From Candidatus Kerfeldbacteria bacterium RIFCSPLOWO2_02_FULL_42_19 (GTDB taxonomy: Bacteria > Patescibacteriota > Patescibacteriia > HO2-48-17), in the NCBI GenBank assembly GCA_001818315.1, contig MHKF01000012.1, forward strand, positions 128,080 through 192,079: DNA of 64,000 nt, given 5' to 3'. This document shows positions 7,102 through 38,517 of the stretch, piece after piece (the first letter of the stretch is position 1; each line of letters begins with the position of its first letter). The notes beneath the pieces were generated by a model. The model saw only the letters and a program-made list of their open reading frames with translations. It was not told where the DNA came from and ran no database searches. The translations under genes and the position numbers were made by a program.

Positions 7102-9945
7102 CTATGACGCTACATTTGTTGCACTGCGGCGATTTTTGAGAGAAGCGCAGTTTCCTGTCTCTGGGTCGACGTGCCTTTTTACTGCAGGCATTTCATGGAA
7201 AGGCACTCGTTCGCCGCAGTGTGGACAGAGGAATGTTTCTTCCCTGGTGCCGTTTTCGGCCGAGAAGAATCTGATTTGCTGCGGTCCACTCTGCAGGTGG
7301 ATGACCTCCACGTGAGTGTTTTCTTTCGGGGATTCGCCGAGTCGCACACCAAGTGTGGGCTCTTCCGCCTTGCCGTCGCGGTTGAAGGCAGCCTGTCGTC
7401 GCTCCCAGAAGTTGATTGCGGTGCGGGCATCTTTTTCCGGTTTCTTCGAACTCTCCTCACCGCCTTCTTTGGAGTCGTTCGCTATCTCTGCGCCGAGTTC
7501 CTGTACTTCGTGGAAGAATTCAGGGAGATCCGCGACGTGATCTTCGGCATCTTCTGGTGGAAGAGGAGGCGCTATCTCCTGATGCGCAGCTGTTGGGACC
7601 GCAGTCTCGATTGTCGCATTCCGAGCGAGAGCGGCGGTGAGTTCTTCGTAGTCACACAGCGCTTTTCTGAGTTTCTTTTCGGTTTCTTCGACTCGCTGCG
7701 TGAGTTCACTGATTGTCTTTTCTGATGTGACAAGCGTTTCGAGTCTGCCTTGTTCGGCAGCAGCAACTTTTTCTTCAGCACTTTTCGCGCGAATTTCTGC
7801 CACCGCTTCCTGTGATTTAGCTACTTCGGCGCGTCTTTCGGCAGTGATTTTTTTGGTATTCGCTTGCCGAAGCTCCTCGATGAGTCGAAGGTTCTCGTCA
7901 AGAAGCGCGTTCTTATTTGCTTCAGCATTTTGCGCCTGAATGCGGTAGAAGCCCGGGTTCGTGCACCCTTCGACGTCATTATTCTGTGACTCCATCTTAA
8001 TGATGTCGCTGAGTATCGGGGCCTCTTGTTTGAGCGCATCACGTTCGTTGCTGAGATTCGTATTTTTTCTACGAGCCTCATTCAAATCAACAATGATTTT
8101 CGTGCGCTCACGTTCGCTTGCTTGCAGATCCGCTTCGAGTTTTCGCTTTGTTTCTTGGAGTTGCTCGACCTTCTCTACAAGTATTCGAGTCTCGTGACCC
8201 GTGTCTCTCGTCATGTCTCCGATTTTCTTCTGAAGACTCTCTCGTGTTTTTTCCGACTTCTCGTAGTTTTTTTCGAGACGTCGGATTTTCTCTTGCTGAG
8301 TTTTGACAGTATCAGTATCGTCATCACTTGCAAACTGTCTCTTCAACACGAAGAGAATAATGAGTAGGAACGGGAGACACGCGAACATCAGAGGCGCGCG
8401 GCGCATGAAGACGTTCTGCGCGATCCAGTTATTGAGGGGATCAATGACTGGAATCCGGGTGGGATCTGCGGCAGGTTCGGCTGGCGGTGCGTCGACGGTT
8501 GGTGTTTCGGAGACGACGTTGCCGAACGTATTGGATTGCGGCAGAGTGTCATCTCGCTGAGGTTGCTGACCCTGTCCATCTTGCGAAGGCGTAGAGAGAC
8601 ACGCTGTCGAAGCTTTTGTTAGCTTTTCCTGCGTTTCGCTGAGTTTTTTCCGGAGCTTTTGAAGATCCTCCTCTGTTGCCTGCAATTTTTTGAGGGCATC
8701 ATCGAGGTCCTCCTTGAGGTTCTGCTTTTCTGTATGTAACGCAGCGGCGTTTTGACTCACCTCTTCCGATGTCGTATGCGTTTTTTTGAGGTATTTTACT
8801 TCATTACCCGGGTGGAGCGTTGCTTTTTTTACTCCTTCTTCTTCCACCCACATAGGACCGTTGAGCATCTCTAATTGCGCTTGATACTCACCCGAGGTAA
8901 ATTCCCCGGGATCATCTGACAGTCGTTGCGCGATGGACCAATACCCATCATTCGGTTCGACTGTCGTAGTATCGGTCAACTCCGTGGTCTCAAGATAGGC
9001 TAGGAGCGCTTTTAAAAATTTTTCCGATTGCTCCGCGTTTTCTTTTTCACTAAAGAAGTCGCGTCGCAGTTTGTCACCGCCATCTTGATCATCCTCCTTT
9101 ATAATGACGGTGCCAGTCTGAAAGCTGATTGTCACGGTCCCCATTGCAAACACTTTTCCGTTATCCCGAGCGATCTTGCTTTCGCTTTCGGGAGCTGTCG
9201 CAATGAAGTCTGCCTTGAGTTTGTTGACGATGTTCTCGGGCAGCCGGAACACGATTGTTCTTGATAACGTTCCGGTTTGCTGTACTTGCGCGCTGACCTC
9301 CTGTGTTTGTGGTGTTTCGGTTTTGATTGTTCTGTCTGTTTTCCTATCTTCAGGAGAGCCGAAACTTCCAATGCCAGGTGTGCCGTCGACTGATTTTTCC
9401 TTCTTTTCGGCATCGGTGGCGGGTTTTGCCTTGGCGTCAATGGGATCGCCTCCAACGCCTCTGTGTGCTGCAATACTGCGCGGCACTACCTTGAGTGTTT
9501 TTCGTCCCGCGATGATCTCTTGCTGTTTCTTCGGATCACGTCTTGCTACATTCGCGTTTTGAGCGAGTTCGGCAAGAGCGATTCTCAGATCTTGGCCGCT
9601 TCCGGAGACACTTGCGAACAAATTCTTACTCGCTCCAGTCTCTATGACTTCGTACCAGAGCAGAGTGTTTTCCTGTATTGCTCCATCGAAGACTTCGATG
9701 AGCAATTTGGGAATCTTGATCCCCGGAATGAAGATCTCCTGTGAGGAACACTGCATTTGTGTTCCTGCGGTGACTGCCTTCCCGTCTGGTGAACTGATTT
9801 TCACTACGAGATTCCGCAGTTCCGGTTCATTAGAGAGAATCCAACATTCTTGTTCTGCCCGCTCTTGATCCGCTGCGATTGCATCCACGATATTCAGAGC
9901 GAAAAAAACGCTCAACATCACGATCGTTGTTGTCATCAGTTTCAT
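7102..9945 (-). CDS. large signal-peptide/TM coiled-coil protein with a C-terminal zinc ribbon (hypothetical)
   Basis: 947 aa; N-terminal signal peptide; central TM (MFACLPFLLIILFVLK); long heptad-rich E/K/Q region; C-terminal CPHCG…C; GC content clearly higher than the neighbouring genes. Confidence 0.6.
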   Translation of the reverse strand: MKLMTTTIVMLSVFFALNIVDAIAADQERAEQECWILSNEPELRNLVVKISSPDGKAVTAGTQMQCSSQEIFIPGIKIPKLLIEVFDGAIQENTLLWYEVIETGASKNLFASVSGSGQDLRIALAELAQNANVARRDPKKQQEIIAGRKTLKVVPRSIAAHRGVGGDPIDAKAKPATDAEKKEKSVDGTPGIGSFGSPEDRKTDRTIKTETPQTQEVSAQVQQTGTLSRTIVFRLPENIVNKLKADFIATAPESESKIARDNGKVFAMGTVTISFQTGTVIIKEDDQDGGDKLRRDFFSEKENAEQSEKFLKALLAYLETTELTDTTTVEPNDGYWSIAQRLSDDPGEFTSGEYQAQLEMLNGPMWVEEEGVKKATLHPGNEVKYLKKTHTTSEEVSQNAAALHTEKQNLKEDLDDALKKLQATEEDLQKLRKKLSETQEKLTKASTACLSTPSQDGQGQQPQRDDTLPQSNTFGNVVSETPTVDAPPAEPAADPTRIPVIDPLNNWIAQNVFMRRAPLMFACLPFLLIILFVLKRQFASDDDTDTVKTQQEKIRRLEKNYEKSEKTRESLQKKIGDMTRDTGHETRILVEKVEQLQETKRKLEADLQASERERTKIIVDLNEARRKNTNLSNERDALKQEAPILSDIIKMESQNNDVEGCTNPGFYRIQAQNAEANKNALLDENLRLIEELRQANTKKITAERRAEVAKSQEAVAEIRAKSAEEKVAAAEQGRLETLVTSEKTISELTQRVEETEKKLRKALCDYEELTAALARNATIETAVPTAAHQEIAPPLPPEDAEDHVADLPEFFHEVQELGAEIANDSKEGGEESSKKPEKDARTAINFWERRQAAFNRDGKAEEPTLGVRLGESPKENTHVEVIHLQSGPQQIRFFSAENGTREETFLCPHCGERVPFHEMPAVKRHVDPETGNCASLKNRRSATNVAS

Positions 9946-12396: not shown

Positions 12397-13761
12397 ATGC
12401 CAAGAACGCGCACACGTTTACGTGTCCATCGTAATAAAATTGTAAAAAAAAGTACTCGGGGCAAGCGCAAGCCAGAACCGAAGCGTTCTCGGAAAAAATC
12501 CGCATTGTCTTCGGTGCGTAAAAAATCTCATAACATTCGTCGATCAAAACATAATGCCTCAGCTCATGGCGCTCCAGGTCGCAAACCTCAGAAGCGAATC
12601 GGTTTGTCAACTGGAAAATCTCCTTTAAAAGCTCTCGGATTTTTACATCCGCCAGTGCCGCCGCGGGGATATACACCAACTTCGTGGCCGGAATCTGAAG
12701 CTCAGAAATTGTTTGCTAAGGGACAGATGCGCAGCTTTTTGACTGAAGATGAAATTTTACATACATTTCCTTTTATTGAAGATTATTTGCATGAATACGA
12801 ACATTTTTTGGGGCAACTCGAATACGGCGGAGTCGCCATTCGTGAGACAACGGGAAGTATTCTTGGACAACAACTCGCACCGCAAAACGAAACCCGGAAG
12901 CAGGTTTCTGATCGTAAGCCGTTCGATTTGGGTGACATTTCGAATGATTCTATTCAAATGTATTTGCGCGAGATTGGGAAAGTACCTCTTTTAAACAGTG
13001 AGGAAGAAATTCGACTTGCGAAACTCAAAGAAAGAGGGGAGCCGGACGCTAAACGGAAAATGATTGAAGCGAATTTGCGTCTCGTCGTAAGTATTGCAAA
13101 GAAGTTTACTGGCAGATCGCTTTCGCTTTTAGATCTCATTCAAGAGGGGAATGTTGGTTTGTTTCGCGCCGTGGAAAAGTTTGACTATCGGAAGGGGTAT
13201 AAATTTTCGACGTATGCGACCTGGTGGATTCGGCAGGCGATTACGCGTTCACTTGCAGATCAATCGCGCACGATTCGTATTCCGGTCCACATGGTCGAGA
13301 CGATTAATAAGTTTCAGCAGATAGAAAGGCAATTGATTCAAAGTCTTGGACGCGAGCCGCTGCCCGAAGAAATTGCCACTGAGATGGGCTTGCCGATCGA
13401 AAAAGTATTTCAGATTATAAAAATTTCGCAGGACACAGTTTCACTCGAAACGACTGTTGGAGATGATGATGAAGATTCAACGCTTGGGGATTTTATTGAA
13501 GATGCGAAGAGCGTGACACCGGATCGTGCAGCGGCTTTGGAGCTTTTGCGAGATCATGTGCGTGATGTGATTCGTGATTTAGTGCCCCGTGAACAAAAAA
13601 TTCTTGAGATGCGTTTTGGATTGCTCGACGGTGTTGCTCATACGCTCGAGGAAGTTGGTCAAGAGTTTGGTGTTACTCGAGAGCGTATCCGTCAGATTGA
13701 AGCAAAGTCACTGGAGCGCATCAAGCAACATGTCTCTATGAAAAAGCTTCAGGATTATTAG
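12397..13761 (+). CDS. rpoD: RNA polymerase primary sigma factor RpoD (sigma-70) with a basic N-terminal extension
   Basis: [12 protein letters not shown] region 2.x, IRIPVHMVE, region 4 [15 protein letters not shown]; the position after dnaG fits the operon. Confidence 0.85.
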
Positions 13762-17350: not shown

Positions 17351-17713
17351 TTACGCAATGAGTTGATGAATCAGACTTACGAATTTGAGCCATTCTGCAG
17401 TGTTTTCCATGAGTATTATATGACCTTGTGTTGTAATGGCGTATTCTTTTTTTCGTGGGCCACGTTTTGATCGTTTCCATTGTGCCTCGATGAGTTTTTG
17501 CTTTTCAAGTTTGTGCAGGAGCGGGTAGAGCATGCCAGGTGAACATTTTAAAGCGCCGTTTGAATGAGTGCGTATCCAGTGACGGAGATAATACCCGTGC
17601 ATGGGTTGCTCTCTCAGCGCTGAAAGGATAATCGTTTCTGTTGTGCCTTTGAGGAGCTCTTTATGATTGAGTGTTATGTGCGGTAGAGAGCGAGGTTCGT
17701 CGTTGGATTTCAT
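17351..17713 (-). CDS. PadR-family transcriptional regulator
   Basis: ETIILSALREQPMHGYYL…GMLYPLLHKLEKQKLIEAQWK is a typical PadR winged helix; it is the first gene of an apparent PadR-znuC-znuB operon. Confidence 0.65.
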   Translation of the reverse strand: MKSNDEPRSLPHITLNHKELLKGTTETIILSALREQPMHGYYLRHWIRTHSNGALKCSPGMLYPLLHKLEKQKLIEAQWKRSKRGPRKKEYAITTQGHIILMENTAEWLKFVSLIHQLIA

Positions 17714-18040
17714 AAAACTTGATTTTTTCCTTGCGCTTTCGAAGCAGGGTTATTCATGGGATGAGTGAAAAATGGTATGTTACCTCTCGATATACCAATT
17801 ATATCTTACTACGATATAGTGTCAAGATTCTTCGAAGTACGAAGTGGCTTTTGTTGAGGATGCATCGAGAATGAGATCGGTTTTTTTTCGTATTTTTATG
17901 GACTGTAAAAGTATTCCCTCTTGAGCCGAAGTTTTTCCGTAATTGACCCACCAAAATTTTTATGGTAATCTTTAGCTGTCTCATGAATGTTTTTGCACAT
18001 TTATAATTTTTATTTTCGTCTTTCAGTACGAAAGACACGA

Positions 18041-18116
18041 TCCGCGGTAGCTCAGTTGGTAGAGCAGTTGGCTGTTAACCAATTGGTCGTGGGTTCGAGT
18101 CCCACCCGCGGAGCCA
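18041..18116 (+). tRNA. tRNA-Asn (anticodon GUU)
   Basis: 7-bp acceptor stem tccgcgg/ccgcgga, D-arm TAGCTCAGTTGGTAGAGC, anticodon loop cuGUUaa, T-arm GGTTCGAGTCC, encoded CCA; 76 nt. Confidence 0.85.
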
Positions 18117-18122
18117 TCACTT

Positions 18123-19649
18123 ATGCGTACTACCAAGCGAGTACTCAATATTATTCATATTGCTTCTGAAGTCGATCCGCTTTCTAAGCGCGGCGGTCTT
18201 GCTGATGTCGTTGAATCTTTGCCAAAAGCTCTCAAAGCTCTTGGACATGACGTATGTCTTTTTACTCCGCTCTATGGTTCGATTGATCGACAGCAGTTCC
18301 ATCTTCAGAATATTAAAAATGACATTCCTTTAAAGATCGATGCAACGACTTCCGTAAGTTTTCATATTTGGAAAGGTGAACTTCCTTCTGGTATCACTGT
18401 TTTCTTTATCGATAACCATGAATATTTCGGGCGATACAAAACTATCTATTTAAGCGAAGAAGGTTCTATCGCCGATAATGCCCGTTTTTTATTCTTTGAT
18501 CTTGCGGTGCTTAAGGTTATTATTGAACTTAATCTCAAACCAGATATTTTGCATTGTCATGATTACCAGTCTGGTCTTGTGCCTTATTTTCTCAAATATC
18601 GCTTTCGAAAAAGTAAGTTTTTCAAAAATACTGCAACGGTTTTCACAATACATAATCTCGTCTTTCAACTCGGTCGCAATTGGTGGGAAGTCCCCCCTGA
18701 ACTTAAAGACGACGGTCGATTGAAATTACCTTTGATGACCGCTGTCGATCAAATTTCCGCTATTAATTTTATGAAACGAGCGATCCTCACTGCTGATATG
18801 GTGAATACCGTTTCTGAGCAGTATGCTCTTGAAGTCCTGACGCCTGAAGTCGGTCAGAATCTTTATCGGTTGCTGAATAGCAAATACGATACGGGCCGGT
18901 TTATTGGTATCGTTAACGGCATTGATTACAATGAATACAATCCCGAAACAGACCCCGGCTTGTTTCGGAAGTTTTCCATCGATACATTGCAACTGAAACA
19001 AGAAAATAAAATCGGTCTGCAGAAAATGTTTCGACTGCCGTTGAATCCGTTGATTCCGGTGATCGGGAGTACGAGTCGTATTGCCGAACAAAAAGGTTTT
19101 GATCTCGTGATGCGTGTTGTCGAAACGTTCGCGCATTTGCCGTTGCAACTTATATTGTTTGGTGACGGTGGCCGTGAATATATTTCTTTTTTTAAAAATA
19201 TCGCACGTAGATATCCAAAGAAGATCGCAATCCAGCCTTTTGAAAGTCAGGATGAAACAAAAATTCTTGCGGGTTCCGATATGTTTTTGCTCCCTTCTCG
19301 ATTTGAACCGTGTGGACTTGGACAATTAAAAAGTTTACGATACGGTAGTATTCCCATTGTGCGTGCGACGGGTGGACTCATCGATACCGTAACAAATTAC
19401 GATCCCCGAACGCAGAAAGGAAATGGCTTCGTGTTCCGTAGTTATAATTCCAAACATCTACTGGTCGCTGTTGTTCGTGCTATGGAAAATTTCAAATATG
19501 CAAAGGAATGGAACGCGCTTGTTAAGCGCGGTATGCAACTTTCTTTTTCTTGGGCGCTGCCGGCAAAAAAATATGTCAAACTCTATCGTCATGCACTTCA
19601 TGTGAAAAACGGTAGTGATGCCGTCGATGTGTATAGCGAAAATACATGA
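18123..19649 (+). CDS. glgA: glycogen/starch synthase (GT5, GlgA-like), copy 1
   Basis: N-terminal IASEVDPLSKRGGLADVV (K-x-GGL motif); GT-B C-terminal region with E…PCGL. Confidence 0.8.
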   Translation: MRTTKRVLNIIHIASEVDPLSKRGGLADVVESLPKALKALGHDVCLFTPLYGSIDRQQFHLQNIKNDIPLKIDATTSVSFHIWKGELPSGITVFFIDNHEYFGRYKTIYLSEEGSIADNARFLFFDLAVLKVIIELNLKPDILHCHDYQSGLVPYFLKYRFRKSKFFKNTATVFTIHNLVFQLGRNWWEVPPELKDDGRLKLPLMTAVDQISAINFMKRAILTADMVNTVSEQYALEVLTPEVGQNLYRLLNSKYDTGRFIGIVNGIDYNEYNPETDPGLFRKFSIDTLQLKQENKIGLQKMFRLPLNPLIPVIGSTSRIAEQKGFDLVMRVVETFAHLPLQLILFGDGGREYISFFKNIARRYPKKIAIQPFESQDETKILAGSDMFLLPSRFEPCGLGQLKSLRYGSIPIVRATGGLIDTVTNYDPRTQKGNGFVFRSYNSKHLLVAVVRAMENFKYAKEWNALVKRGMQLSFSWALPAKKYVKLYRHALHVKNGSDAVDVYSENT

Positions 19650-20926
19650 AAAAAAATGTAACACAATTTTCTGGAGTCAGGCGTGAATCGCGCTCTATTC
19701 CTTGGGCAGCCCTTTTTCATATCTATCAACCAGATCACTGGGATCCGCGAGTGATTCGAAAGGTTGCAAAAGAAGCGTATTATCCCTTTCTACGCATGTT
19801 GCAAAAAAATCCGAATCATAAAATCACTTTGAATATTTGTGCTTCCCTTACCGAACAGTTGAGTCGTCACGGTATGTCGGACCTTTTGCGTGGCTTTGCT
19901 CTCTGCGCACAGCGCGGTCAAATTGAGTTTACTCAAACAGCAAAGTATCATCCTATTTTACCGAAATTACCGCGTAAGGAAATTATCCGGCAGTTTGAAT
20001 TGAACTATGCAACGAATCGAGCGTTTTTTGGAGAGGCTTTCGCGCCTCGAGGTGTGTTTTTACCGGAGATGTGCATGAATCACAATGTCGCTTCGATTAT
20101 TGCTGAGCTTGGATATGAGTGGATTGTGTTGGATGAAATTGCGTATGCCGGACGCATCGGCGATGTTTCGTTTCGTTATAAATATTACGATCCGAAGAGC
20201 ACATTATTGCTTTTATTCCGTAATAGAATCTTAAGCGATGTATTTTTCCGGTTGGATTTGAATACTGTCAGCGAATTTCGTAATTTTATACTCGAAAAAT
20301 TAGCGCCGCAGTCACCGCTCGTTACTGCGCTTGATGGAGAAAATCTTGGGCATCATCGCAAAGGTATGGACGGGATATATCATAAGCTTGTGCAAAGTCG
20401 ACCGTTTGTAACTATGACCTATTCTGAACTTCTCGCAACACTGCCACTCAGGAAACTCTCACATCCTTTACATCCTTCAAGTTGGGCTTCGCGTTCCGAA
20501 GAACTCGCCCGCGGAGTGCCTTATATTCGTTGGGATGATCCTACCAATCCGATTCACACGTTACTCTGGGAGATTACCCGAGGGGTCTTGAAGATTTTTT
20601 ATAAACACCAGGCGAAAACCGTTTTATGCGGTGAAGCACGGATTCGACTCGATCAGGCACTGAACAGCGATCAGTATTGGTGGGCATCCACACAACCTTG
20701 GTGGAGTGTGGAAATTCTTTTTGCAGCCCTCGATGAGTGGAAACAGGTACTTTCGCAACTCGCTGGCGTGCCTCAACAAGAGATTCAAAAGATTATGCGA
20801 CTTATCACTCGCACGAAACGTCTCGTACGTACATGGCAAGACAAGGGCGTTGCGGAGCGTCGCCGACTCGCCTATCTACGCACCGTGCAGGAGGCAAGTT
20901 TTCTTGGAGGTAAAACAGTTTTATGA
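19646..20926 (+). CDS. glycoside hydrolase family 57 protein (alpha-glucan-active), copy 1
   Basis: GH57 blocks HIYQP…, IEFTQTAKYHPILP, GVFLPEMC (nucleophile Glu region), WIVLDE; overlaps the next gene by 4 nt. Confidence 0.6.
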   Translation: MKKNVTQFSGVRRESRSIPWAALFHIYQPDHWDPRVIRKVAKEAYYPFLRMLQKNPNHKITLNICASLTEQLSRHGMSDLLRGFALCAQRGQIEFTQTAKYHPILPKLPRKEIIRQFELNYATNRAFFGEAFAPRGVFLPEMCMNHNVASIIAELGYEWIVLDEIAYAGRIGDVSFRYKYYDPKSTLLLLFRNRILSDVFFRLDLNTVSEFRNFILEKLAPQSPLVTALDGENLGHHRKGMDGIYHKLVQSRPFVTMTYSELLATLPLRKLSHPLHPSSWASRSEELARGVPYIRWDDPTNPIHTLLWEITRGVLKIFYKHQAKTVLCGEARIRLDQALNSDQYWWASTQPWWSVEILFAALDEWKQVLSQLAGVPQQEIQKIMRLITRTKRLVRTWQDKGVAERRRLAYLRTVQEASFLGGKTVL

Positions 20927-22317
20927 TTTGGACTAATTTTTTACATATTTATCAGCCGCCGACGCAGAAGCAACGATGGGTGCGTAAAATCGCTAACGAA
21001 AGTTACCGCAAACTCATTCGTGGATTTTTGGATAATCCCAAAGCCAAAGTTACGATGAATGTGAATGCTGTACTTCTGGAACTTTTCGATCGATATGGAT
21101 GTCAGGATGTGATTGCCGGATTGCGTGAACTTGGCGAGCGCGGACAGATTGAATTTACGGCATCAGCAAAATATCATCCTTTTTTGCCGCTTATGCCTGA
21201 GACTGAAATTGTTCGTCAGATCGGACTGAATACGGAAACAAATCGCAAGTATTTAGGTCCGGCGTATCAACCCAAAGGTTTTTTCCCGCCTGAAATGGCA
21301 TATAATCGGCGTGTCGGTGAGATTGTGAGTAAGCTCGGTTTTCGTTGGATTATTCTTGATGAACTCGCTTCTGCGCCTGCAACAGGGACACTGTCTGCGA
21401 GCGCACTGTATGAAATTAAAGGCATCCCCGATTTTTATGTTTTTTTTCGTGATCGCGCCATGAGCTTTCGAATTCTTTCTGCACAGGTTGGCGTGAGTGT
21501 GTTTTCAAGTAACATGTTGTTGGATTTTTTAGGTGATCGTTTGAATCGTAACGAATATTTACTTACGGCAATGGACGGCGAAACATTTGGACATCATCGA
21601 CCGGGTCTTGAGATGTTATTGTTTGAGATTTACAAAGCAGAGGGCATTACTTCTCTCACGATTTCTCAGCTTTTTGAACATTTTCACGAAAAACGTGTTA
21701 TTGATCCGCGTGATTCCACGTGGGCATTGATGCGTCGGGATTTGGAACGTAATACACCTTTTTCGCGTTGGAAGAATGAACAGAACGAAATTCAAATGTG
21801 GCAATGGGAGCTTACCGATTTGGCGATTCGGAATGTGGAGCACTTTGAACGCGCTAAGCAGGTTACTGCGGCACAGCGTGCAGCGCTCGATCGCGCGCTG
21901 CACAGCGATCAATATTGGTGGGCTTCCGCTGAGCCGTGGTGGAGTATTGAAATGATCGAGGCAGGTGCAAAAGAGTTACGGGATGTTGTTTTGAGTCTGA
22001 GTGTTTCAGCTGCTACAAAGCGTAAAGCAGAAGAACTCTACAAAAATATTTTGTATCGAGCTTTTGATTGGCAGCGGTCAGGCAAAGTCGAAACGATGGC
22101 GAAAATGGCGGATGAAGATGTGACGCAGCGCATTACGACCGAGATTCCTTATATTCCGGAAGAAGAATTTAATACGATCGTTGCGAATTTGACGAAGCAA
22201 ATGAAGCAGGCTGCAGATGCTTTAGAATACGAACGCGCAGCGCAGATTCGCGAGCGCATTAGCGAGTTGAATGCAAAGAAAGACGAAATTACACAACCGA
22301 AAGAGTATCGACCGTGA
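20923..22317 (+). CDS. GH57-family protein with a C-terminal UVR (UvrB/UvrC-type) domain
   Basis: GH57 blocks as in the upstream paralog, plus a C-terminal ANLTKQMKQAADALEYERAAQIRERISEL UVR motif. Confidence 0.6.
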   Translation: MIWTNFLHIYQPPTQKQRWVRKIANESYRKLIRGFLDNPKAKVTMNVNAVLLELFDRYGCQDVIAGLRELGERGQIEFTASAKYHPFLPLMPETEIVRQIGLNTETNRKYLGPAYQPKGFFPPEMAYNRRVGEIVSKLGFRWIILDELASAPATGTLSASALYEIKGIPDFYVFFRDRAMSFRILSAQVGVSVFSSNMLLDFLGDRLNRNEYLLTAMDGETFGHHRPGLEMLLFEIYKAEGITSLTISQLFEHFHEKRVIDPRDSTWALMRRDLERNTPFSRWKNEQNEIQMWQWELTDLAIRNVEHFERAKQVTAAQRAALDRALHSDQYWWASAEPWWSIEMIEAGAKELRDVVLSLSVSAATKRKAEELYKNILYRAFDWQRSGKVETMAKMADEDVTQRITTEIPYIPEEEFNTIVANLTKQMKQAADALEYERAAQIRERISELNAKKDEITQPKEYRP

Positions 22318-22318
22318 A

Positions 22319-22411
22319 GCGAGGAGTTGAGTGTAGGGATAGTATAGCTTTCGAAGCACTAACATTGTACTGTGTGCTGAGAAAGTATATTATCCCTACA
22401 CTCAACTCCTC
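22319..22411. repeat. Family-B hairpin repeat, copy 2 (after the GH57-UVR stop)
   Basis: gaggagttgagtgtagggatagtatagctttcgaagcactaacattgtactgtgtgctgagaaagtat…atccctacactcaactcctc. Confidence 0.6.
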
Positions 22412-22488
22412 GTGCAATCGATTTGGATTATTGCAACGATGCGCCTTCTCGGTCATAATAATATCAAGATGTTCATTTGTGATTTTTA

Positions 22489-23955
22489 ATGTACATGAAA
22501 GCATTGCGTGTTTTATTTATTGCTTCTGAATTGAATCCACTCGCAAAAGTTGGAGGTCTTGCGGATGTTATTGGAGCTTTGCCGAAAGCTCTCAAAAAGC
22601 AAGGTGTGGATGTGCGAATCATGATCCCAAAGTATAGCATGATTGATCCCAAGCAATATCCGATGCAGCGTATTGCGCGACGCATTCCGGTGCGCCTCTA
22701 TAATCGCACTTACTTGGTTAATGTTTTTACAACGAAACTTCCGGGCACTTCCATCACGGTATATCTCATCGATCAAAAGGATTTCTTTGCAGACGGCGGA
22801 GTGTATTATTCAAAGACAGCTCTTGTAGGTACTTTTAAAGAAATCGAGAGATTTTTGTTTTTCGGTCGTGCGGCCCTTGAAAGCCTTCCGCATCTCGGCT
22901 GGAAGCCAGATATTTTGCATTGTAATGATTGGCACACCGCGTTTATTCCTGTATGGCTTAAGACCATCTATTGTTGTCATCATCCATTTTACGCTTCACT
23001 TCGCACGTTATATACCATTCATAATCTTGCGAATCAAGGCATTGGTGATCTGAAGCTTTTAAAAGTTGCGAATGTTTCTACGCGAGCTCTCCCGAGTCTT
23101 GAACGTGATGCTCGGAATAATGATATTGATCTCATGGTACAAGGTATTCTCACAAGCGACGCGATCAATACGGTGAGTCCAACGTATGTGAAGGAGATTC
23201 TGACACCGGAATACGGTGAGCGTTTAGACCCAGTCCTCAAACTCCGCCAGCGTGATCTTTATGGGATTTTGAACGGTATTGATACGGATGTTTTTAATCC
23301 TTCCACTGATGTGCATATTCGACAGCGTTATTCGGTGAAGAGTTTTGAACAGAAGCAGATCAATAAGGCGGCCTTGCAACAAATGTGTGGTTTTCATGTC
23401 GATCCGCGTGTACCCGTTTTTGGTATGGTATCGCGTTTGACTCATCAAAAAGGATTCGATCTTTTAATCAAACTGCGTAAGGAACTTATAAAACTTCCTA
23501 TGCAACTTGTCATTTTGGGCACTGGCGATGCAACGATTGAAAAAGCCCTTGTGGCGCTCAGCAAACGATCGTCGCGCACGATGTGTATTTTTTTGAAATT
23601 TGATGCCAAGCTCGCGCAGATGATTTATGCTGGCAGTGATTTTTTTCTTATGCCTTCTCGGTTTGAACCGTGTGGCCTTGGACAAATGATTGCTATGCGC
23701 TATGGTACTCCGCCTGTTGTACGATCGACTGGAGGACTTGCTGATACCGTGCGGCACCTCAAAACAGGTGTCGTCTTCCATGATTATGCCGCCAAAGCAC
23801 TTCTTGCTGCTTTACACACGGCGATCCGTATCTATCACAATCCTCACGTGTATACTGCGTTAGCGAAAGCCGGCATGAGACAAGATCTTTCGTGGGGCAG
23901 TTCTGCTCAAGTGTATATGCGATTATATCGTAAACTCCTTGCATCCCATTCATAA
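22489..23955 (+). CDS. glgA: glycogen/starch synthase (GlgA-like), copy 2
   Basis: IASELNPLAKVGGLADVIGALP; GT-B C-terminal SRFEPCGL. Confidence 0.8.
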   Translation: MYMKALRVLFIASELNPLAKVGGLADVIGALPKALKKQGVDVRIMIPKYSMIDPKQYPMQRIARRIPVRLYNRTYLVNVFTTKLPGTSITVYLIDQKDFFADGGVYYSKTALVGTFKEIERFLFFGRAALESLPHLGWKPDILHCNDWHTAFIPVWLKTIYCCHHPFYASLRTLYTIHNLANQGIGDLKLLKVANVSTRALPSLERDARNNDIDLMVQGILTSDAINTVSPTYVKEILTPEYGERLDPVLKLRQRDLYGILNGIDTDVFNPSTDVHIRQRYSVKSFEQKQINKAALQQMCGFHVDPRVPVFGMVSRLTHQKGFDLLIKLRKELIKLPMQLVILGTGDATIEKALVALSKRSSRTMCIFLKFDAKLAQMIYAGSDFFLMPSRFEPCGLGQMIAMRYGTPPVVRSTGGLADTVRHLKTGVVFHDYAAKALLAALHTAIRIYHNPHVYTALAKAGMRQDLSWGSSAQVYMRLYRKLLASHS

Positions 23956-23964
23956 CATTATTCT

Positions 23965-24894
23965 ATGCGTCCAGAAATTCGTAAAGATTATATTCAAGAT
24001 AAATATGTGATCATCGCTCCTAAGCGTGCACAGCGTCCTCATGATATTGAAAAACCGGTCACGCAATTTAAGACTGAAATTCCTGCCATGTGCGCTTTCT
24101 GCCCACAAAATATTAATAAAGTGAAGCCGGTGTATAAGAAGGGTCGGGATCATGGTTGGTTGATTTATGTCGTGAAGAATATTTTTCCTGCCGTGTCGCT
24201 TGACAATCCGGAATCTTACGGAACGCAAGAAGTGATTATCGAAACACCGGATCACACAAAACACATGGATGATTTGCCTGAGCGACATATCGCGTCGCTT
24301 CTCCATACGTATGCCGAACGAACGCGCGCTTTGGAAAAAATTTTGAACATTGATTATATTTTAATTTTTAAAAATAACGGCGGTGCAGCCGGTGCATCCT
24401 TGAAACATTCCCATTCCCAGATTTTTGCGACACGCTTTGTTCCGCCGCAGTTGATGGATAAGTCCCGCAAGGTTTTTGAGTATAAGCTTTTCAACGGCAG
24501 GTGCGTTTATTGCGATACGATCGATAAAGAATCAAAAGGTCCGCGGTTTGTATATAAAGATCAACATGTCATTGCTTTTACTCCGTATGCATCGATGCAT
24601 AATTACGAAATTTGGATTATGCCGCTTCGGCATGTGGATAACATTACGAAACTCACGCACGTGGAACATCATTCTTTTGCTCGTATCTTAAAGCGCATTC
24701 TTAAGAAAATTACCTACCTCAATTTGCCGTACAATTATTATTTTCATCAACTCGTGAACGATACGGATCAGCATTTGTATTTGAAAATTGTACCGCGCGG
24801 TTCGGTCTGGGCGGGCGTGGAAATTGGGTCTGGCCTGGTGATTAATGCGATTGCGCCGGAGGAAGCTGCTAAGTATTATCGCGGTGAATTGTAA
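23965..24894 (+). CDS. GalT-type HIT-family nucleotidyltransferase (galactose-1-phosphate uridylyltransferase / ADP-glucose phosphorylase-like)
   Basis: CAFCPQN zinc/active-site motif and HSHSQIF (H-x-H-x-Q), with an internal duplicated half-domain. Confidence 0.6.
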   Translation: MRPEIRKDYIQDKYVIIAPKRAQRPHDIEKPVTQFKTEIPAMCAFCPQNINKVKPVYKKGRDHGWLIYVVKNIFPAVSLDNPESYGTQEVIIETPDHTKHMDDLPERHIASLLHTYAERTRALEKILNIDYILIFKNNGGAAGASLKHSHSQIFATRFVPPQLMDKSRKVFEYKLFNGRCVYCDTIDKESKGPRFVYKDQHVIAFTPYASMHNYEIWIMPLRHVDNITKLTHVEHHSFARILKRILKKITYLNLPYNYYFHQLVNDTDQHLYLKIVPRGSVWAGVEIGSGLVINAIAPEEAAKYYRGEL

Positions 24895-24924
24895 ATATTC
24901 GGGAATTTTCGTCCTGTAATTGAA

Positions 24925-25090
24925 AGAGTGAAGAACGGCGAGCATATGTTTTTTCAAATGCGTTGTGATTACCAACTTTATGAGATAGAGAGGAAAGTGT
25001 GTACGAGAGCAACTTTTTCAAACGAATATCATTCATGTTTGGATATCACAGCATTTGAAAAAACATATGCTCGCCGTTCTTCACTATTCA
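24925..25090. repeat. Family-A element, copy 2 (conserved core in a different, locus-specific perfect ~28-bp stem)
   Basis: Arms agtgaagaacggcgagcatatgtttttt / aaaaaacatatgctcgccgttcttcact; the core aligns with 4567-4746. Confidence 0.6.
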
Positions 25091-25110
25091 TATATCAAAA
25101 ATAAGGAGAT

Positions 25111-25308
25111 ATGGAATTTGCAAATCTGCGCTGTCCCTATTGCGGACATGTACAACAGGTGACGGTGCCACAAAAAAGTTGTCTTTTTTCGCATCGCTGC
25201 GCGCGATGTCATGATCTTATTACCGTACCATCGACGAGTTCGGAATGCTGTGTAATTTGCGCTTATTCCGATACGAAGTGTCCAGTGAGTCGCTCACAGA
25301 GTAAGTAA
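25111..25308 (+). CDS. small Cys-rich zinc-ribbon protein (hypothetical)
   Basis: 65 aa with CPYCG…C…C..C and a second CC..C cluster; weak support. Confidence 0.3.
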   Translation: MEFANLRCPYCGHVQQVTVPQKSCLFSHRCARCHDLITVPSTSSECCVICAYSDTKCPVSRSQSK

Positions 25309-25360
25309 GTTGGAGCCTAAACACAGCACAACCTCTTTACTTTGGTAGCTAAAGAGGTTG

Positions 25361-27184
25361 TTATGGCGAAAGATCAAGCCCCCATTGTTCGAGTATACTT
25401 TGGAGGTATTCGAGTGTCTTTGTGTCCATCTTTGGACTCATGAGTATTTTTGTTTTCCCGAGGCGCGCTAGTTGCTCAATTGTTTGTACACCCCAACGGT
25501 CTTTGAATCCTCGAATGATTTCTTTCGTGACGCCGTACTTGTTCAGACATTCGATATTTTTTTGTTTCGCCAATTCGGAAGGCCATAGTGGAATGTGCCG
25601 TGTTTCGTTTTTCCGTCTCCCTTGTTTCTTTTTTGATTCCTCCTTTGGTTTCTTGTGCTCTATCTCTTGGCTATCAGATGTTTGGTATGTCCGAACAAAC
25701 TGGGTGTTCAGGTTGAGCATCTCCGCGATCGTACTTATGGGCCATTCGAGATCATTAATAAGTCTTGCAATAATGATTTCGCGAATCATTTGCAGCTCTG
25801 GCGTGTTGCATGCGTATCGTATCGCGCGAAGACTCTGACCGAAACTCTCGCACATCTTTCGAACCAAATTTTCCCGAGCGACTTTTGCTCGGCGTGTCCA
25901 CGATATGCAACGTTGCACAGAACATTTTGGTTTCTTTTTAAAACATGCATCTTCTGGAAAAAGGTATTTTATTTTTTCCAAGATCTGTTTATTTTGACAC
26001 AGCCCAAGTACCCTTTTTTCTATTTGTCGTACTCGTTCCCGCGTGACACCGAGATATGCACCTACTTCTTCCAATGTCTCGCCGTCGCCGCCATTGAGAC
26101 AGAATCGTCTTTCAATACAAACCCGTTCTTGCTCAAAGAGATAACATGCGTCGAAAATTTCCTCGACGAGTTTTGTAAGTTTTTTATGCGTTTCTGCATC
26201 ACACAAACTTTCTTCTATCGAGCTGCCACTAGATACAAGATCACCTCTTGTCGCGCCGTGGTTTGCATCGTTTTGAAGAGATGCGTCCAGCGAGAGAGGA
26301 TGATCATAATTGCGTAATCGGTTGAATAGATCCAAAATTTTTTTCGAACTCGTATTCATGCGTGCTGCAAGTGATTCAATTGTTGGCCGTTCACCAGAAA
26401 GCATCTCTATCTGATAGGTTATTCTATTCAACCTTTGAAGCTCGACGATCAGATGGACTGGAAATATATGAGCCTCTGCAATAGCTCTCCACATCGCTTG
26501 TTTTATCCACCAGTGTGCATAGGTTGAGAAGCGGACTCCTCGCGTATAATCATAACGTTCTACGGCATGCATAAGACCGAGCGCGCCTTCCTGCAAGAGA
26601 CTGTCTTGCGCAAGCATTGGATCCCGGATTCTACCAATGATATTCATTAGATGCCCAAGCGTAGCGCCAACGAGGTTCAGATTTTGTTCCATAATTTGAT
26701 TGCGAGCGGCAAGTCTTTCCGCGGGTGTCCCTTCTCGGAATTGTTGGAAGAGTTTAAATTGGTTGCCGAGGATTTTTTGTGCTATCGCTTCTTCCTCTGG
26801 CGTTGTGGCCTTAAAGTGTGATGTCTCGTATGTGGCGGACAGATTTTTTGGACCAGTGAAATGACGACCGTCTCCTGCTGAAGTACGCAAATGCTCACAA
26901 CCGTACTCTTCGAGTGCTTGTTGGATTTCTGCGATAATATTATCCGCAGTGCCATGTGGCAGAGACCTTTGAACCCCTGCCCTTCTGATCTCTAGAAATG
27001 TTCGGCGTAGTTCCGCCTCACTTTTGAGTTTGAGTTTCGCGATTGTTGTAATGCCTGCACTGATCAGATAGAGTTTTGTGAATGGAGATATATTCAGCGC
27101 GTCTATCGATTCTCCGGTTTCTTGTTTGTTAAGGTGCTGCATGTGTCCCTCCTGTCTTTTCGTTGTGATGTATTCTGATTTCAC
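25361..27184 (-). CDS. sigma-70-family sigma factor with N- and C-terminal extensions that resemble RpoA alpha-CTD / HhH domains
   Basis: Region 2 YAHWWIKQAMWRAI; region 4 LEEVGAYLGVTRERVRQIE; N-terminal LNISPFTKLYLISAGITTIAKL and C-terminal IECLNKYGVTKE…TIEQLARLGKTKILMSPKMDTKTLEYLQSILEQWGLDL resemble the alpha-CTD pattern. Confidence 0.65.
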   Translation of the reverse strand: MKSEYITTKRQEGHMQHLNKQETGESIDALNISPFTKLYLISAGITTIAKLKLKSEAELRRTFLEIRRAGVQRSLPHGTADNIIAEIQQALEEYGCEHLRTSAGDGRHFTGPKNLSATYETSHFKATTPEEEAIAQKILGNQFKLFQQFREGTPAERLAARNQIMEQNLNLVGATLGHLMNIIGRIRDPMLAQDSLLQEGALGLMHAVERYDYTRGVRFSTYAHWWIKQAMWRAIAEAHIFPVHLIVELQRLNRITYQIEMLSGERPTIESLAARMNTSSKKILDLFNRLRNYDHPLSLDASLQNDANHGATRGDLVSSGSSIEESLCDAETHKKLTKLVEEIFDACYLFEQERVCIERRFCLNGGDGETLEEVGAYLGVTRERVRQIEKRVLGLCQNKQILEKIKYLFPEDACFKKKPKCSVQRCISWTRRAKVARENLVRKMCESFGQSLRAIRYACNTPELQMIREIIIARLINDLEWPISTIAEMLNLNTQFVRTYQTSDSQEIEHKKPKEESKKKQGRRKNETRHIPLWPSELAKQKNIECLNKYGVTKEIIRGFKDRWGVQTIEQLARLGKTKILMSPKMDTKTLEYLQSILEQWGLDLSP

Positions 27185-30038: not shown

Positions 30039-30737
30039 TCAAAAAAATTTACCTTCGATCATTCGTAGCCACTGAAGCCACTGCTCAGGATTTTTTTCGA
30101 ATTCAGGACGTTTGTGGGTGAGTACTTTTCGCGCGAGCGTGGCGCTGAAAGTATCACCGTTGAAACTGCCAAGTAGAACCCCTACGAAAAGGCTCGAGTT
30201 GATGTGCACATCGTCTTGCGCACCCGGTTTGAGATTAATGCTATGCTCAGGCTCTTCGCGAAAGAAGTTTTCGAGACTCGGCGCAGCCTCGATAATGCTT
30301 CGCTCTTGTTCTAGTGTGAACATTTCCGTCGTCTGAAATTTTCCATTAGCGAGTACGAAGAGCCTCAGAAAACGTCCCAACATACGCCACAACATGATTA
30401 ACGTCCAGAAATCATCCAAATTCCAGATATCCTGCACTAGTATACGCATTGTGTCCGGGTAGATGATGAGACAATTTTTCGCAACAGGGGCTTGCGGGCC
30501 GAAAAAGGTAAGTCCTCGCACAGCGTTCTCTGCAGTTGGTGGTTCTTTCATGAACAAAATTTGCGGTGGATTTTGATGTGTATGAGGTAGTTTTTCTGCA
30601 AAGCTGATAAAATTGACTCTTAGGAATTCCTCGGGACGATATCTGTCGGACAACTGAAATTCTGGATCATCGTTCAAGTATCCATACAGATTCAATCTCT
30701 CATCTTGTTTGCCCTGTTTTTGCATCTCTACATTCAC
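30039..30737 (-). CDS. uncharacterised protein, paralog B of 27311-28060
   Basis: 232 aa; same conserved blocks as paralog A. Confidence 0.55.
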   Translation of the reverse strand: MNVEMQKQGKQDERLNLYGYLNDDPEFQLSDRYRPEEFLRVNFISFAEKLPHTHQNPPQILFMKEPPTAENAVRGLTFFGPQAPVAKNCLIIYPDTMRILVQDIWNLDDFWTLIMLWRMLGRFLRLFVLANGKFQTTEMFTLEQERSIIEAAPSLENFFREEPEHSINLKPGAQDDVHINSSLFVGVLLGSFNGDTFSATLARKVLTHKRPEFEKNPEQWLQWLRMIEGKFF

Positions 30738-36987: not shown

Positions 36988-38517
36988 ATGACCCACACTA
37001 TGCCTGCAAAAGATTTTCCAAAAGAATGGCCGATCTATTTTAAAGACAATATTATCGTTGGAAATCTTCAGAATTCTGTTGGAATTGCCTGTCTTTGGAC
37101 GCCGAAAGTCATGTTCGCACGAAAGTTAAACGCCGCAAGTTACTGCGTTTTGAGTCAGTTGTATTCGAACGACGGCATTAATCCAATTTTGCGCAATGTT
37201 TTAGCTCGGCCGCAAATTCATACGATTGTTATTTGCGGGCAGGATAAAATTGGTTCAGCCGATGCGCTGACAAAGCTTTGCGTTAGCGGTATTGATGAGA
37301 AATACAAGATAATCGGTAAACTCGAGGCAAAGGTGGATAAGGAGATTCCGCGCGAGGCCGTGGAACTTTTTCGTAGGAACGTAAAGATTGTGGATATGCG
37401 TGGCGTGCTCGATGCGGCGAAAATTCAACAAGCCGTGCGCGAACACGCAGCGCCGAACACACCGTGGGCAGCGCCGCAACTTTTTCCTGAACCAGAACTT
37501 TCAACCGAACGTTTTCCGATCGATCCTCACGGAGTCAAGATTCGTGAGAAGTATGTCGCGCAAGCGTGGCTTCGGGTGCTGTATTATATTATGCGCTTCG
37601 GCGCGGAAAAACCTACGCATCACGGCACGAATCAAAAAGAACTCCTGAATATGATGACGATTATCACTGACGAAGATCCCGAAAATATCCATTGGGCAGA
37701 TTGGTTCAATTTTACACGCGAGCACTTTGAAGGGTATAAGCTACAAGTCATGAGTGCGGAATCGATTCCTAGTCTGGAGTATACGTACGGCATGCGATTG
37801 CGGAATCACGATGGCGTGAATCAGATTGAGACGCTTATTGCAAAAATTCGAGAGGAATATTTTTCCCGACGCGCTGTTGCTTTTACGTGGAATGTCGCTC
37901 AGGATAACGTGAGTCAGCATCCGCCGTGCCTTGATCTCGTACAGGTGATTGTGCAGGACGATACGCTTCACATGACGTGTTACTTTCGTTCGAATGACAT
38001 GTTCCGCGCATGGCCGGAAAATGCGTTGGCCTTGCGCACGATGCACAAGGAGATTGCCGACGGAGTGGAATTGCCGATGGGCGAAATGTGTATTATTTCT
38101 CACAGCGCTCATGTGTACGAAGAAAACTATAATGAAGTGAAGGAGCTTTTGAAAAATTATTATGCGAAAGAGGTTGTTTTTTGCCGTTTTGATCCGCGTG
38201 GCAATTTTACGATTCACGTGAATCGCGAAAAGCGTCAGTTAGAAATGATCATGATGACGCCGAAAGGTGAGAAGATTGTCAAATACGAAGCACCCGATGC
38301 GTTCCGTATGATGCAAAAATTGGTCGCTGATGAAGCAGTTAGCGAGATTGGGCACGCGTTAGATTTGGGTGAGGAGCTCATGGAAGCAGAAATTTGTTTG
38401 CGTACAGGCCTTGAATATCGGCAGGATATCACAGGACGTACGCAATTTTTAAAGGAACTTGATCAGCTTTTGGCAGCACGCAGGCAAGAGGAACGAATCT
38501 TCGCGCGTTCAAGATGA
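36988..38517 (+). CDS. thymidylate synthase (ThyA-fold) homolog with a ~170-aa N-terminal extension
   Basis: RRAVAFTWNVAQD…HPPCLDLVQVIVQD…CYFRSNDMFRAWPENALALRTMHKEIA…ISHSAHVYEENYNE parallels the ThyA blocks R..WNP.D…PPCH…QF.V…YQRS.D…PFNIASYALL…GD.HIY.NH, including the catalytic Cys. Confidence 0.55.
   Translation: MTHTMPAKDFPKEWPIYFKDNIIVGNLQNSVGIACLWTPKVMFARKLNAASYCVLSQLYSNDGINPILRNVLARPQIHTIVICGQDKIGSADALTKLCVSGIDEKYKIIGKLEAKVDKEIPREAVELFRRNVKIVDMRGVLDAAKIQQAVREHAAPNTPWAAPQLFPEPELSTERFPIDPHGVKIREKYVAQAWLRVLYYIMRFGAEKPTHHGTNQKELLNMMTIITDEDPENIHWADWFNFTREHFEGYKLQVMSAESIPSLEYTYGMRLRNHDGVNQIETLIAKIREEYFSRRAVAFTWNVAQDNVSQHPPCLDLVQVIVQDDTLHMTCYFRSNDMFRAWPENALALRTMHKEIADGVELPMGEMCIISHSAHVYEENYNEVKELLKNYYAKEVVFCRFDPRGNFTIHVNREKRQLEMIMMTPKGEKIVKYEAPDAFRMMQKLVADEAVSEIGHALDLGEELMEAEICLRTGLEYRQDITGRTQFLKELDQLLAARRQEERIFARSR

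Follow-up and report, generated by a model that had tools for sequence, protein, structure and literature searches.

The UVR motif (PF02151), known from UvrB, UvrC, McsA, ClpC and DISC1, is a hairpin of two short antiparallel helices that is flexibly linked to other domains and dimerises head to head through its loop, which carries an ultra-conserved Phe and an Ala (2026 structural paper, PMC13273187). Among the glycoside hydrolases of family GH57, the described systems closest to the one reported here are AaApu, a short, catalytic-domain-only enzyme (477 aa) of Aquifex aeolicus (PDB 9jlr) whose three-helix bundle at the C-terminus contributes to substrate binding (PMC12106739), the branching enzymes of T. 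kodakarensis (3n8t), T. thermophilus (1ufa/3p0b) and T. maritima (AmyC, 2b5d), and the small, glycogen-gene-linked 'alpha-amylase' or 'alpha-amylase-like' proteins of archaea (PMC11046441). A stretch of 64,000 nucleotides (nt) of contig MHKF01000012.1 from Candidatus Kerfeldbacteria bacterium RIFCSPLOWO2_02_FULL_42_19, called the window hereafter, contains a gene, GH57b-UVR, that joins both elements in one protein: a GH57 enzyme core followed by a UVR hairpin at the extreme C-terminus. The reading favoured here, with a probability of about 0.55, is that GH57b-UVR is a competent minimal GH57 alpha-glucan enzyme with a UVR pairing module, probably a homodimer, and that it belongs to a subfamily specific to the Candidate Phyla Radiation (CPR) and linked to the glycogen/starch synthase GlgA.

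Both domains of GH57b-UVR scored above the curated gathering cut-offs of Pfam. PF03065 (Glyco_hydro_57) matched residues 21-260 with 121 bits against a cut-off of 21.2 (E=8e-35), and PF02151 matched residues 420-450 with 36.8 bits against 21.5 (E=2.8e-9). The original prediction, made from the sequence alone, had placed a UVR motif on the second of two tandem GH57 paralogs with genes overlapping by 4 nt, and it was borne out in both parts: the gene of the upstream paralog, GH57a, and that of GH57b-UVR share the ATGA at 20923-20926, and a GGAGG lies 13 nt upstream of the GH57b ATG. The protein ends in ...EEEFNTIVANLTKQMKQAADALEYERAAQIRERISELNAKKDEITQPKEYRP, so that the terminal sequence quoted in that prediction is followed by KDEITQPKEYRP.

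The tail is related to the hairpin of UvrB rather than being part of a UvrB or UvrC protein. The NCBIfam models of UvrB and UvrC matched the tail only (the last ~50-60 residues, E ~1e-5), with 18-24 bits against cut-offs of 285-750, and no NCBIfam family covers GH57b-UVR. When the PDB was searched by sequence with phmmer, the whole protein matched UvrB C-termini, and the 69-aa tail alone matched the C-terminal hairpin of UvrB in 2d7d_B (E=1.6e-4), with 17 of 36 positions identical in the segment NTIVANLTKQMKQAADALEYERAAQIRERISELNAK. The similarity reached into the linker preceding the hairpin of another UvrB (9gy7_E), and matches to the M-domain of ClpC1 were weak (E 0.4-0.65). Pfam found neither the helicase domains of UvrB nor the GIY-YIG or Endo V nuclease domains of UvrC in GH57b-UVR, and no other DNA-repair domain was detected with Pfam and NCBIfam. 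An identity as a homologue of UvrB, UvrC or McsA was therefore rejected, as the domains that define UvrB and UvrC are missing. What GH57b-UVR shares with UVR proteins is the profile match, the loop aromatic and the Ala, and with UvrB also the position of the hairpin behind a linker at the very end of the chain, but here the hairpin sits on a glycoside hydrolase and not on a helicase, a nuclease, a kinase activator or an AAA+ protein.

An AlphaFold2 model built on a 47-sequence alignment (mean predicted local distance difference test score, pLDDT, 88.6; predicted template modelling score 0.84) has the strands and helices of an incomplete barrel up to residue ~280 and a helical bundle up to ~395, with a pLDDT >90 in the core. 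A turn of three residues joins two further helices, 413-432 and 436-451, into an antiparallel hairpin modelled with a pLDDT of about 72, whereas the hinge at 401-406 is the segment of lowest confidence (pLDDT <50). The UVR signature of the window protein reads E435-Y436-E-R-A439-A-Q-I-R-E-R445-I-S-E448-L449. Each point of a UVR module that was examined was found in GH57b-UVR, namely the hairpin, the hinge, the location at the chain end, which UvrB shares, and the aromatic and the Ala of the loop, conserved in 99% and 100% of sequences.

The conservation of this architecture was followed in relatives collected from 5.8 billion proteins, of which 119 are listed (P0002-P0120; 55-68% identity to GH57b-UVR). 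A scan with one genome per species showed that at least 579 species-level genomes encode a relative, and all locus counts given below refer to the best 80. These 80 loci come without exception from metagenome-assembled genomes of CPR/Patescibacteria, a few of them with evidently wrong third-party annotation (TPA) labels, and include Kerfeld-, Torok-, Doudna-, Harrison-, Wildermuth-, Nealson-, Portnoy- and Lipton-bacteria, Paceibacterota and WWE3. PF03065 and PF02151 occur together in 118 of the 119 listed relatives, and a hidden Markov model (HMM) of the tail detected it in 79 of the 80 loci, the exception (L053) being cut by the contig end. The same fusion, which the original prediction had proposed to look for in relatives, is therefore conserved, with both the profile match and the tail retained.

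When 79 full-length locus copies were aligned with the window protein (80 sequences), the mean column conservation of the hairpin (413-451) was 0.64, compared with 0.67 for the barrel. The hairpin is under strong purifying selection: E435 and R438 are each conserved in 98% of the sequences, L449 in 97%, and A439, R445 and E448 in 100%, and position 436 is Y in 68% and F in 31% (99% together). Y/F436 and A439 align to the F and the A that UvrB uses in head-to-head pairing. The hinge is conserved as well, with D397 at 98%, E398 at 100%, R403 at 93% and both P409 and P412 above 80%; this stretch (22111-22158, residues 397-412), for which the model has its lowest confidence, nevertheless carries a strongly conserved acidic DE[DE]VTQRI and, after it, PxIP.

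The tail is restricted to part of a larger family. In 50%-identity representatives the family comprises 286 clusters at E <1e-30, and among the best 150 clusters ~25-30 carry the tail, the others being tail-less proteins of ~400 aa. In a rough neighbour-joining tree of 146 sequences, calculated from BLOSUM distances without support values and including mostly these cluster representatives, the two window paralogs and eleven upstream copies, the tailed proteins grouped in one branch, GH57a belonged to another one that lacks the tail, and additional branches without the tail lay elsewhere. This rough tree suggests that the UVR tail was gained once, in one ancient branch of the subfamily.

The enzyme core of GH57b-UVR has the Pfam score, the incomplete (beta/alpha)7 barrel with helical bundle and all five conserved sequence regions (CSRs) of GH57, the latter being YQPPT (10-14), GQIEFT (74-79), FPPEMA (121-126), AMDGETFGHH (216-225) and ALHSDQYWW (325-333). 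Its catalytic residues are intact, with E124 of FPPEMA as nucleophile and D218 of AMDGETFGHH as proton donor; in the 47 aligned sequences D218 is invariant and E124 at least 90% conserved. Structural comparison of the model gave values of 34.1 for Aquifex amylopullulanase (9jlr), 33.8 for AmyC (2b5d), 32.0 for Staphylothermus amylopullulanase (7e1y), 30.5 for Thermus branching enzyme (1ufa) and 29.1 for 4-alpha-glucanotransferase (1k1w), and sequence identity to any solved GH57 was 15-22%. AaApu, the closest structural neighbour, is like GH57b-UVR a short, catalytic-domain-only protein with a C-terminal helical bundle, and CSR-5 of GH57b-UVR ends in the Trp-Trp that is the fingerprint of the amylopullulanase type. 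In contrast, the two proteins are 20% identical, and AaApu is a hyperthermophile enzyme without a UVR hairpin and without the CPR operon context.

Specificities within GH57 have been described by sequence fingerprints, in which alpha-amylases have Glu/Gln at position 1, Arg/Glu at 12, Thr at 23 and Tyr-Tyr at 35-36, branching enzymes have Leu at 23 and Phe plus a non-aromatic residue at 35-36, and amylopullulanases have Trp-Trp at 35-36 (PMC6037648). GH57b-UVR has Tyr at position 1, Phe at 12, Thr221 at 23 and Trp332-Trp333 at 35-36. Assignment to the GH57 alpha-amylases was rejected, as only the Thr at position 23 fits, and so was assignment to the canonical GH57 branching enzymes, given the Thr instead of Leu at 23, the Trp-Trp at 35-36 and scores of 33.3 bits against a cut-off of 1000 for NF041133 and 29.2 bits against 920 for NF041566.

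Branching enzymes also have specific beta5-beta6 strands and a flexible loop between CSR-3 and CSR-4 (PMC9291813). In the phmmer alignment to 3n8t, residues 133-204 of GH57b-UVR (72 aa) stand opposite residues 191-340 of the chain (150 aa), so that by sequence alignment most of this insertion appears to be missing; the model has a short low-confidence loop at 188-192. Nevertheless, 3n8t is the best PDB sequence match of GH57b-UVR (E=1.1e-7), the branching enzymes share with it the FGHH/FGHW motif in CSR-4, and both are genomically associated with glycogen synthesis, whereas Pfam reported no DUF1957-type C-terminal domain like that of the branching enzymes in GH57b-UVR. The archaeal alpha-amylase-like proteins resemble it in their small size, their linkage to glycogen genes and the Thr at position 23, but GH57b-UVR has Phe at 12 and Trp-Trp at 35-36 instead of Arg/Glu and Tyr-Tyr, is bacterial (CPR) and carries the UVR. 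For the archaeal GH57 'amylases' it has been asked whether they provide the 'missing' branching activity in genomes without a classical branching enzyme (PMC11046441), and by analogy the same question applies to GH57b-UVR.

The operon in which GH57b-UVR lies (Table 1) was traced in the 80 loci by tblastn with the window's five proteins, within the fetched flanks. The conserved layout is GlgA, GH57a where present, GH57b-UVR, a spacer of 0 to 5 kb, a second GlgA and a GalT-like gene, and the exact gene order of the window was found in 34 of the 80. GlgA directly 5' of the GH57 gene or genes, in nearly all loci, is the most conserved feature of the neighbourhood; GlgA-2 is conserved downstream in most of them, and the GalT-like gene at the operon end. 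A tail-less GH57 precedes GH57b-UVR directly in 46 loci, whereas in 31 others GlgA is followed directly by the UVR-bearing GH57, without a paralog in the fetched flanks, and the UVR signature E[YF]ERAAQ[IL]RDR is unchanged there. Tail-less members of the GH57b-UVR family were also found alone, directly after GlgA (L083, L084). All five genes recur in unchanged order even at locus L081, where the relative of GH57b-UVR (P0152) shares just 36% identity with it; therefore, the arrangement and the GH57 pair are old. As the gene stands between two glycogen synthases and before the GalT-like gene, the most plausible role of the GH57 pair is to remodel the glucan within a glycogen pathway.

GH57a and GH57b are 37% identical over 362 aa. 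The catalytic motifs of GH57a are intact, with the Glu in FLPEMC (138-143) and the Asp in ALDGENLGHH (228-237), and in all 44 loci examined the upstream GH57 copies, like the UVR-bearing ones, retain the catalytic Glu and Asp. GH57a ends in ...FLGGK, and most of these upstream copies carry a C-terminal [YF][LMF]GG[KQ]K; over the GH57a C-terminus (20870-20923) and the upstream copies in L001-L061 the motif extends to W[QE]xxGxA...[YF][LMF]GG[KQ]K[IV] and could be a docking peptide.

For the UVR hairpin, protein-protein pairing is the most reasonable function. Homotypic pairing is our leading reading and the most economical mechanism, because the UVR is unchanged where the paralog is absent, adjacency to GlgA needs no UVR, and no other UVR gene was found in the operon or the window. 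According to this mechanism, one ancient branch of the subfamily would have acquired a UvrB-type UVR hairpin at its C-terminus through a short hinge, and the hairpin would work as a self-contained pairing module, as in UvrB, UvrC, the Clp proteins and DISC1. Head-to-head contacts through the loop aromatic Y436 and A439 would hold two enzyme molecules together as a homodimer, or would possibly join the enzyme to another UVR-bearing partner. The substrate of the enzyme would be the glycogen-like product of GlgA-1 and GlgA-2, whose genes flank the GH57 pair, and the activity would probably be branching, chain transfer or trimming/debranching. That glycogen is the substrate and that the UVR serves dimerisation are both inferred.

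Several observations weigh against this combined picture. The mixed fingerprint, as read from the sequence, fits none of the described GH57 specificities and appears to place GH57b-UVR outside them. The conserved linker motif (DEDVTQRI, P409 and P412) is unexpected for a purely flexible tether, and the linker or the hairpin may dock on the enzyme or on a partner; the rivals that invoke intramolecular contacts or partner docking stay alive on this account. A third point comes from a sister clade of proteins of ~497 aa from Taylor-, Zambryski- and Yanofsky-bacteria, Paceibacterota and WWE3 (P0152, L081:3275-4783, and about 120 relatives), in which the UVR is divergent (EYEQAIKWRDA) and mostly below the Pfam threshold. 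About 50 residues follow the UVR in this clade and are modelled as two extra helices, so that the partner surface of the hairpin could be intramolecular there.

A more far-reaching possibility, which we consider doubtful, is that the hairpin is the hub of a CPR-specific glycogen-building complex, in which UVR-UVR contacts and the DEDVTQRI hinge would unite a pair of GH57 active sites with the co-translated GH57a and the GlgA synthases. If so, one particle would elongate, branch and trim the glucan, supplying the branching that these reduced genomes otherwise appear to lack.

Docking of the hairpin on the tail-less paralog, so that the translationally coupled GH57 proteins form an obligate heterodimer, appears unlikely. 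The ATGA overlap of the two genes, the age of the pair with catalytic residues kept in both copies and the candidate docking peptide at the end of GH57a all agree with it. However, Pfam found no UVR or comparable hairpin in GH57a, the known UVR contacts are UVR-to-UVR (PMC13273187), and the same UVR signature is found in the 31 loci without the paralog. Of the docking role suggested in the original prediction, protein-protein pairing can be retained as the most reasonable function, whereas the upstream paralog as the partner is not supported.

In plants, starch synthases form complexes mediated by coiled coils, and the UVR might likewise tether GH57b to the adjacent GlgA-1, coupling elongation to branching or remodelling. 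The conserved position of GlgA immediately upstream would fit such a tether, as would the 4-nt ATGA (19646-19649) by which the GlgA-1 and GH57a genes overlap in the window. This alternative is nonetheless as improbable as docking on the paralog: tail-less family members also directly follow GlgA in L083 and L084, and linkage with GlgA therefore does not need the UVR; besides, GlgA-1 has the standard GT5/GT1 domains only and no UVR.

With equally low odds, the hairpin could be an intramolecular extension of the C-terminal helical bundle that shapes or covers the glucan cleft or stabilises the fold. The substrate-binding three-helix bundle of AaApu, in the closest structural neighbour, is in line with this, the conserved DEDVTQRI/PxIP before the hairpin suggests a docked rather than a free linker, and the sister clade adds two helices after its UVR. 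Yet the confidence of the model drops from >90 in the core to <50 in the hinge and ~72 in the hairpin, the conserved residues are exactly the canonical pairing residues of UVR, and many family members work without any tail.

Pairing between UvrB and UvrC is a heterotypic UVR-to-UVR contact, and by the same token the hairpin might pair with the UVR of an unrelated protein such as UvrB, UvrC or a chaperone or adaptor of the ClpC/McsA type, tying glycogen to DNA-damage or proteolytic control. The similarity of the tail, highest to the UvrB hairpin and including part of the preceding linker (9gy7_E), and the weak matches to the ClpC1 M-domain are in its favour. No UVR-bearing gene was found in the 64-kb window or the conserved operon: a search of six-frame open reading frames (ORFs) of the window with an HMM of 120 tails gave no significant second UVR-like segment. 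The next best match (30415-30666, minus strand, E=0.08) had no Pfam match, and the large window ORFs suspected as UvrA, UvrB or UvrC were a primase, sigma factors or proteins without a Pfam match. As no functional logic or co-occurrence evidence was found and the idea comes purely from domain identity, such a partner is very improbable. It would correspond to a more exotic variant of the hub described above, in which pairing with a UvrB, UvrC or Clp-type UVR would put storage-glucan metabolism under stress or proteolytic control.

Finally, a UVR-like tail acquired by chance, or a generic coiled coil without function, which the original prediction had allowed for and which has nothing but its small size (about 36 aa) to speak for it, is excluded by a score above the curated Pfam cut-off and by the conservation of the tail in 118 of the 119 listed relatives and in 79 of 80 loci from many CPR lineages, with hairpin columns about as conserved as those of the barrel and several positions at 98-100%.

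Table 1. Position of GH57b-UVR, its parts and the neighbouring operon features in the window.
Feature	Coordinates	Strand	Details
GlgA-1, glycogen/starch synthase (GT5)	18123..19649	+	PF08323 E=1.3e-65; TIGR02095 glgA 457 bits vs 328; first operon gene
GH57a, tail-less GH57 paralog	19646..20926	+	426 aa; PF03065 E=5e-32
GH57b-UVR	20923..22317	+	464 aa + stop codon
Catalytic GH57 module, residues 1-395	20923..22107	+	incomplete barrel ~1-280 + helical bundle ~281-395
Hinge/linker, residues 396-412	22108..22158	+	D397-E398-[DE]-V-T-Q-R-I, P409/P412
UVR helix-loop-helix hairpin, residues 413-451	22159..22275	+	Pfam match 420-450 = nt 22180-22272
Inverted repeat, 27 nt	arms 22320-22346 and 22386-22412		39-nt loop, 96% complementary
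GlgA-2, second glycogen/starch synthase (GT5)	22489..23955	+	PF08323 E=1.4e-72; TIGR02095 541 bits
GalT-like HIT-family hexose-1-phosphate nucleotidyltransferase	23965..24894	+	PF01087 E=2.2e-16; TIGR00209 103.6 vs 102.1 bits; last operon gene

Further features of the operon and its relatives were noted. The operon contains no GlgC, and the GalT-like nucleotidyltransferase may supply or recycle nucleoside diphosphate (NDP)-glucose for the two GlgA enzymes. Between GH57-UVR and GlgA-2, many relatives have one or two APH-like kinase genes (PF01636) and a PHP-domain phosphoesterase (PF02811), for example L001:9384-11261 and L013:11011-13929. The counterpart in the window is a 171-nt gap (22318-22488), and the kinase and PHP genes seem to have been lost or never gained in its lineage. 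In P0257 (753 aa; cluster member MAF24795.1), a family member without the tail, the GH57 part is joined to an APH-type kinase domain (487-668), a fusion that links GH57 to the kinase of the operon and hints at a phosphorylated sugar or glucan intermediate, perhaps through a maltokinase-like activity. In another metagenomic contig (L082:220-3347), a GH57 of 627 aa that has AmyA middle and C-terminal domains and is of the 4-alpha-glucanotransferase type overlaps by 4 nt with a following tail-less GH57 of the GH57b-UVR family, which is a GH57-GH57 pairing different from that of the window.

The inverted repeat at 22320-22412 lies within the 171-nt gap and follows the stop codon of GH57-UVR immediately; it is the only one of its kind in the window, where none is expected by chance. 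It is not followed by a T-run and is absent from the output of the terminator scan; it may form a hairpin that serves to stabilise or process the transcript, or may be the remnant of a deletion. Over 17400-25400, the numbers of promoters and terminators scored were at the level of shuffled sequence.

Elsewhere in the window, the 509-aa product of 36988-38517 has an unusual three-part architecture of an MtrA-like domain (PF04208, 10-155), a thymidylate-synthase domain (PF00303, 235-391) and a pterin-binding DUF4346 (402-480). A 607-aa sigma-70-like protein (25361-27184, minus strand) adjoins the operon; only regions 2 and 4 were detected in it, with long N- and C-terminal extensions, and a normal sigma-70 is encoded at 12397-13761. 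Four proteins had no Pfam match at E<=1e-5: 7102-9945 (minus strand, 947 aa), 60413-62353 (plus strand, 646 aa), 42067-43692 (minus strand, 541 aa) and 43701-45077 (minus strand, 458 aa).

Both domains of GH57b-UVR are already known, its relatives are public sequences, and the fusion is visible in precomputed domain tables. Relatives are labelled 'UvrB/UvrC motif-containing protein' at NCBI (Patescibacteria, Candidatus Kerfeldbacteria), GH57 or DUF1957 hydrolases at JGI, or 'hypothetical protein'. Judged by titles and abstracts, no paper was found on a GH57-UVR fusion or on a link between UVR and glycogen, nor on the fusion among papers on GH57 with Candidate Phyla Radiation or Patescibacteria glycogen synthase. 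A 2018 in silico survey of GH57 (1602 sequences) mentions neither UVR nor CPR, and a 2024 review of alpha-glucans mentions neither these nor Patescibacteria (PMC11046441). What is new is an uncharacterised, CPR-wide, GlgA-linked GH57 subfamily in which one ancient branch carries a UvrB-type hairpin.

The UVR tail provides a clean case of a pairing hairpin of the DNA-repair type reused on a carbohydrate enzyme, and the fusion lends support to the idea, put forward recently, that UVR is a portable module of self-association; dimerisation, the most likely role of the tail, is unsurprising. A large part of bacterial diversity belongs to the Patescibacteria/CPR, whose genomes are tiny and whose carbon-storage biochemistry has, to our knowledge, been inferred from annotation only. 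The family comprises thousands of sequences and is a conserved GH57 partner of GlgA in CPR; knowing which of branching, trimming and transfer it catalyses would supply a missing piece in the picture of glycogen synthesis and use in these bacteria.

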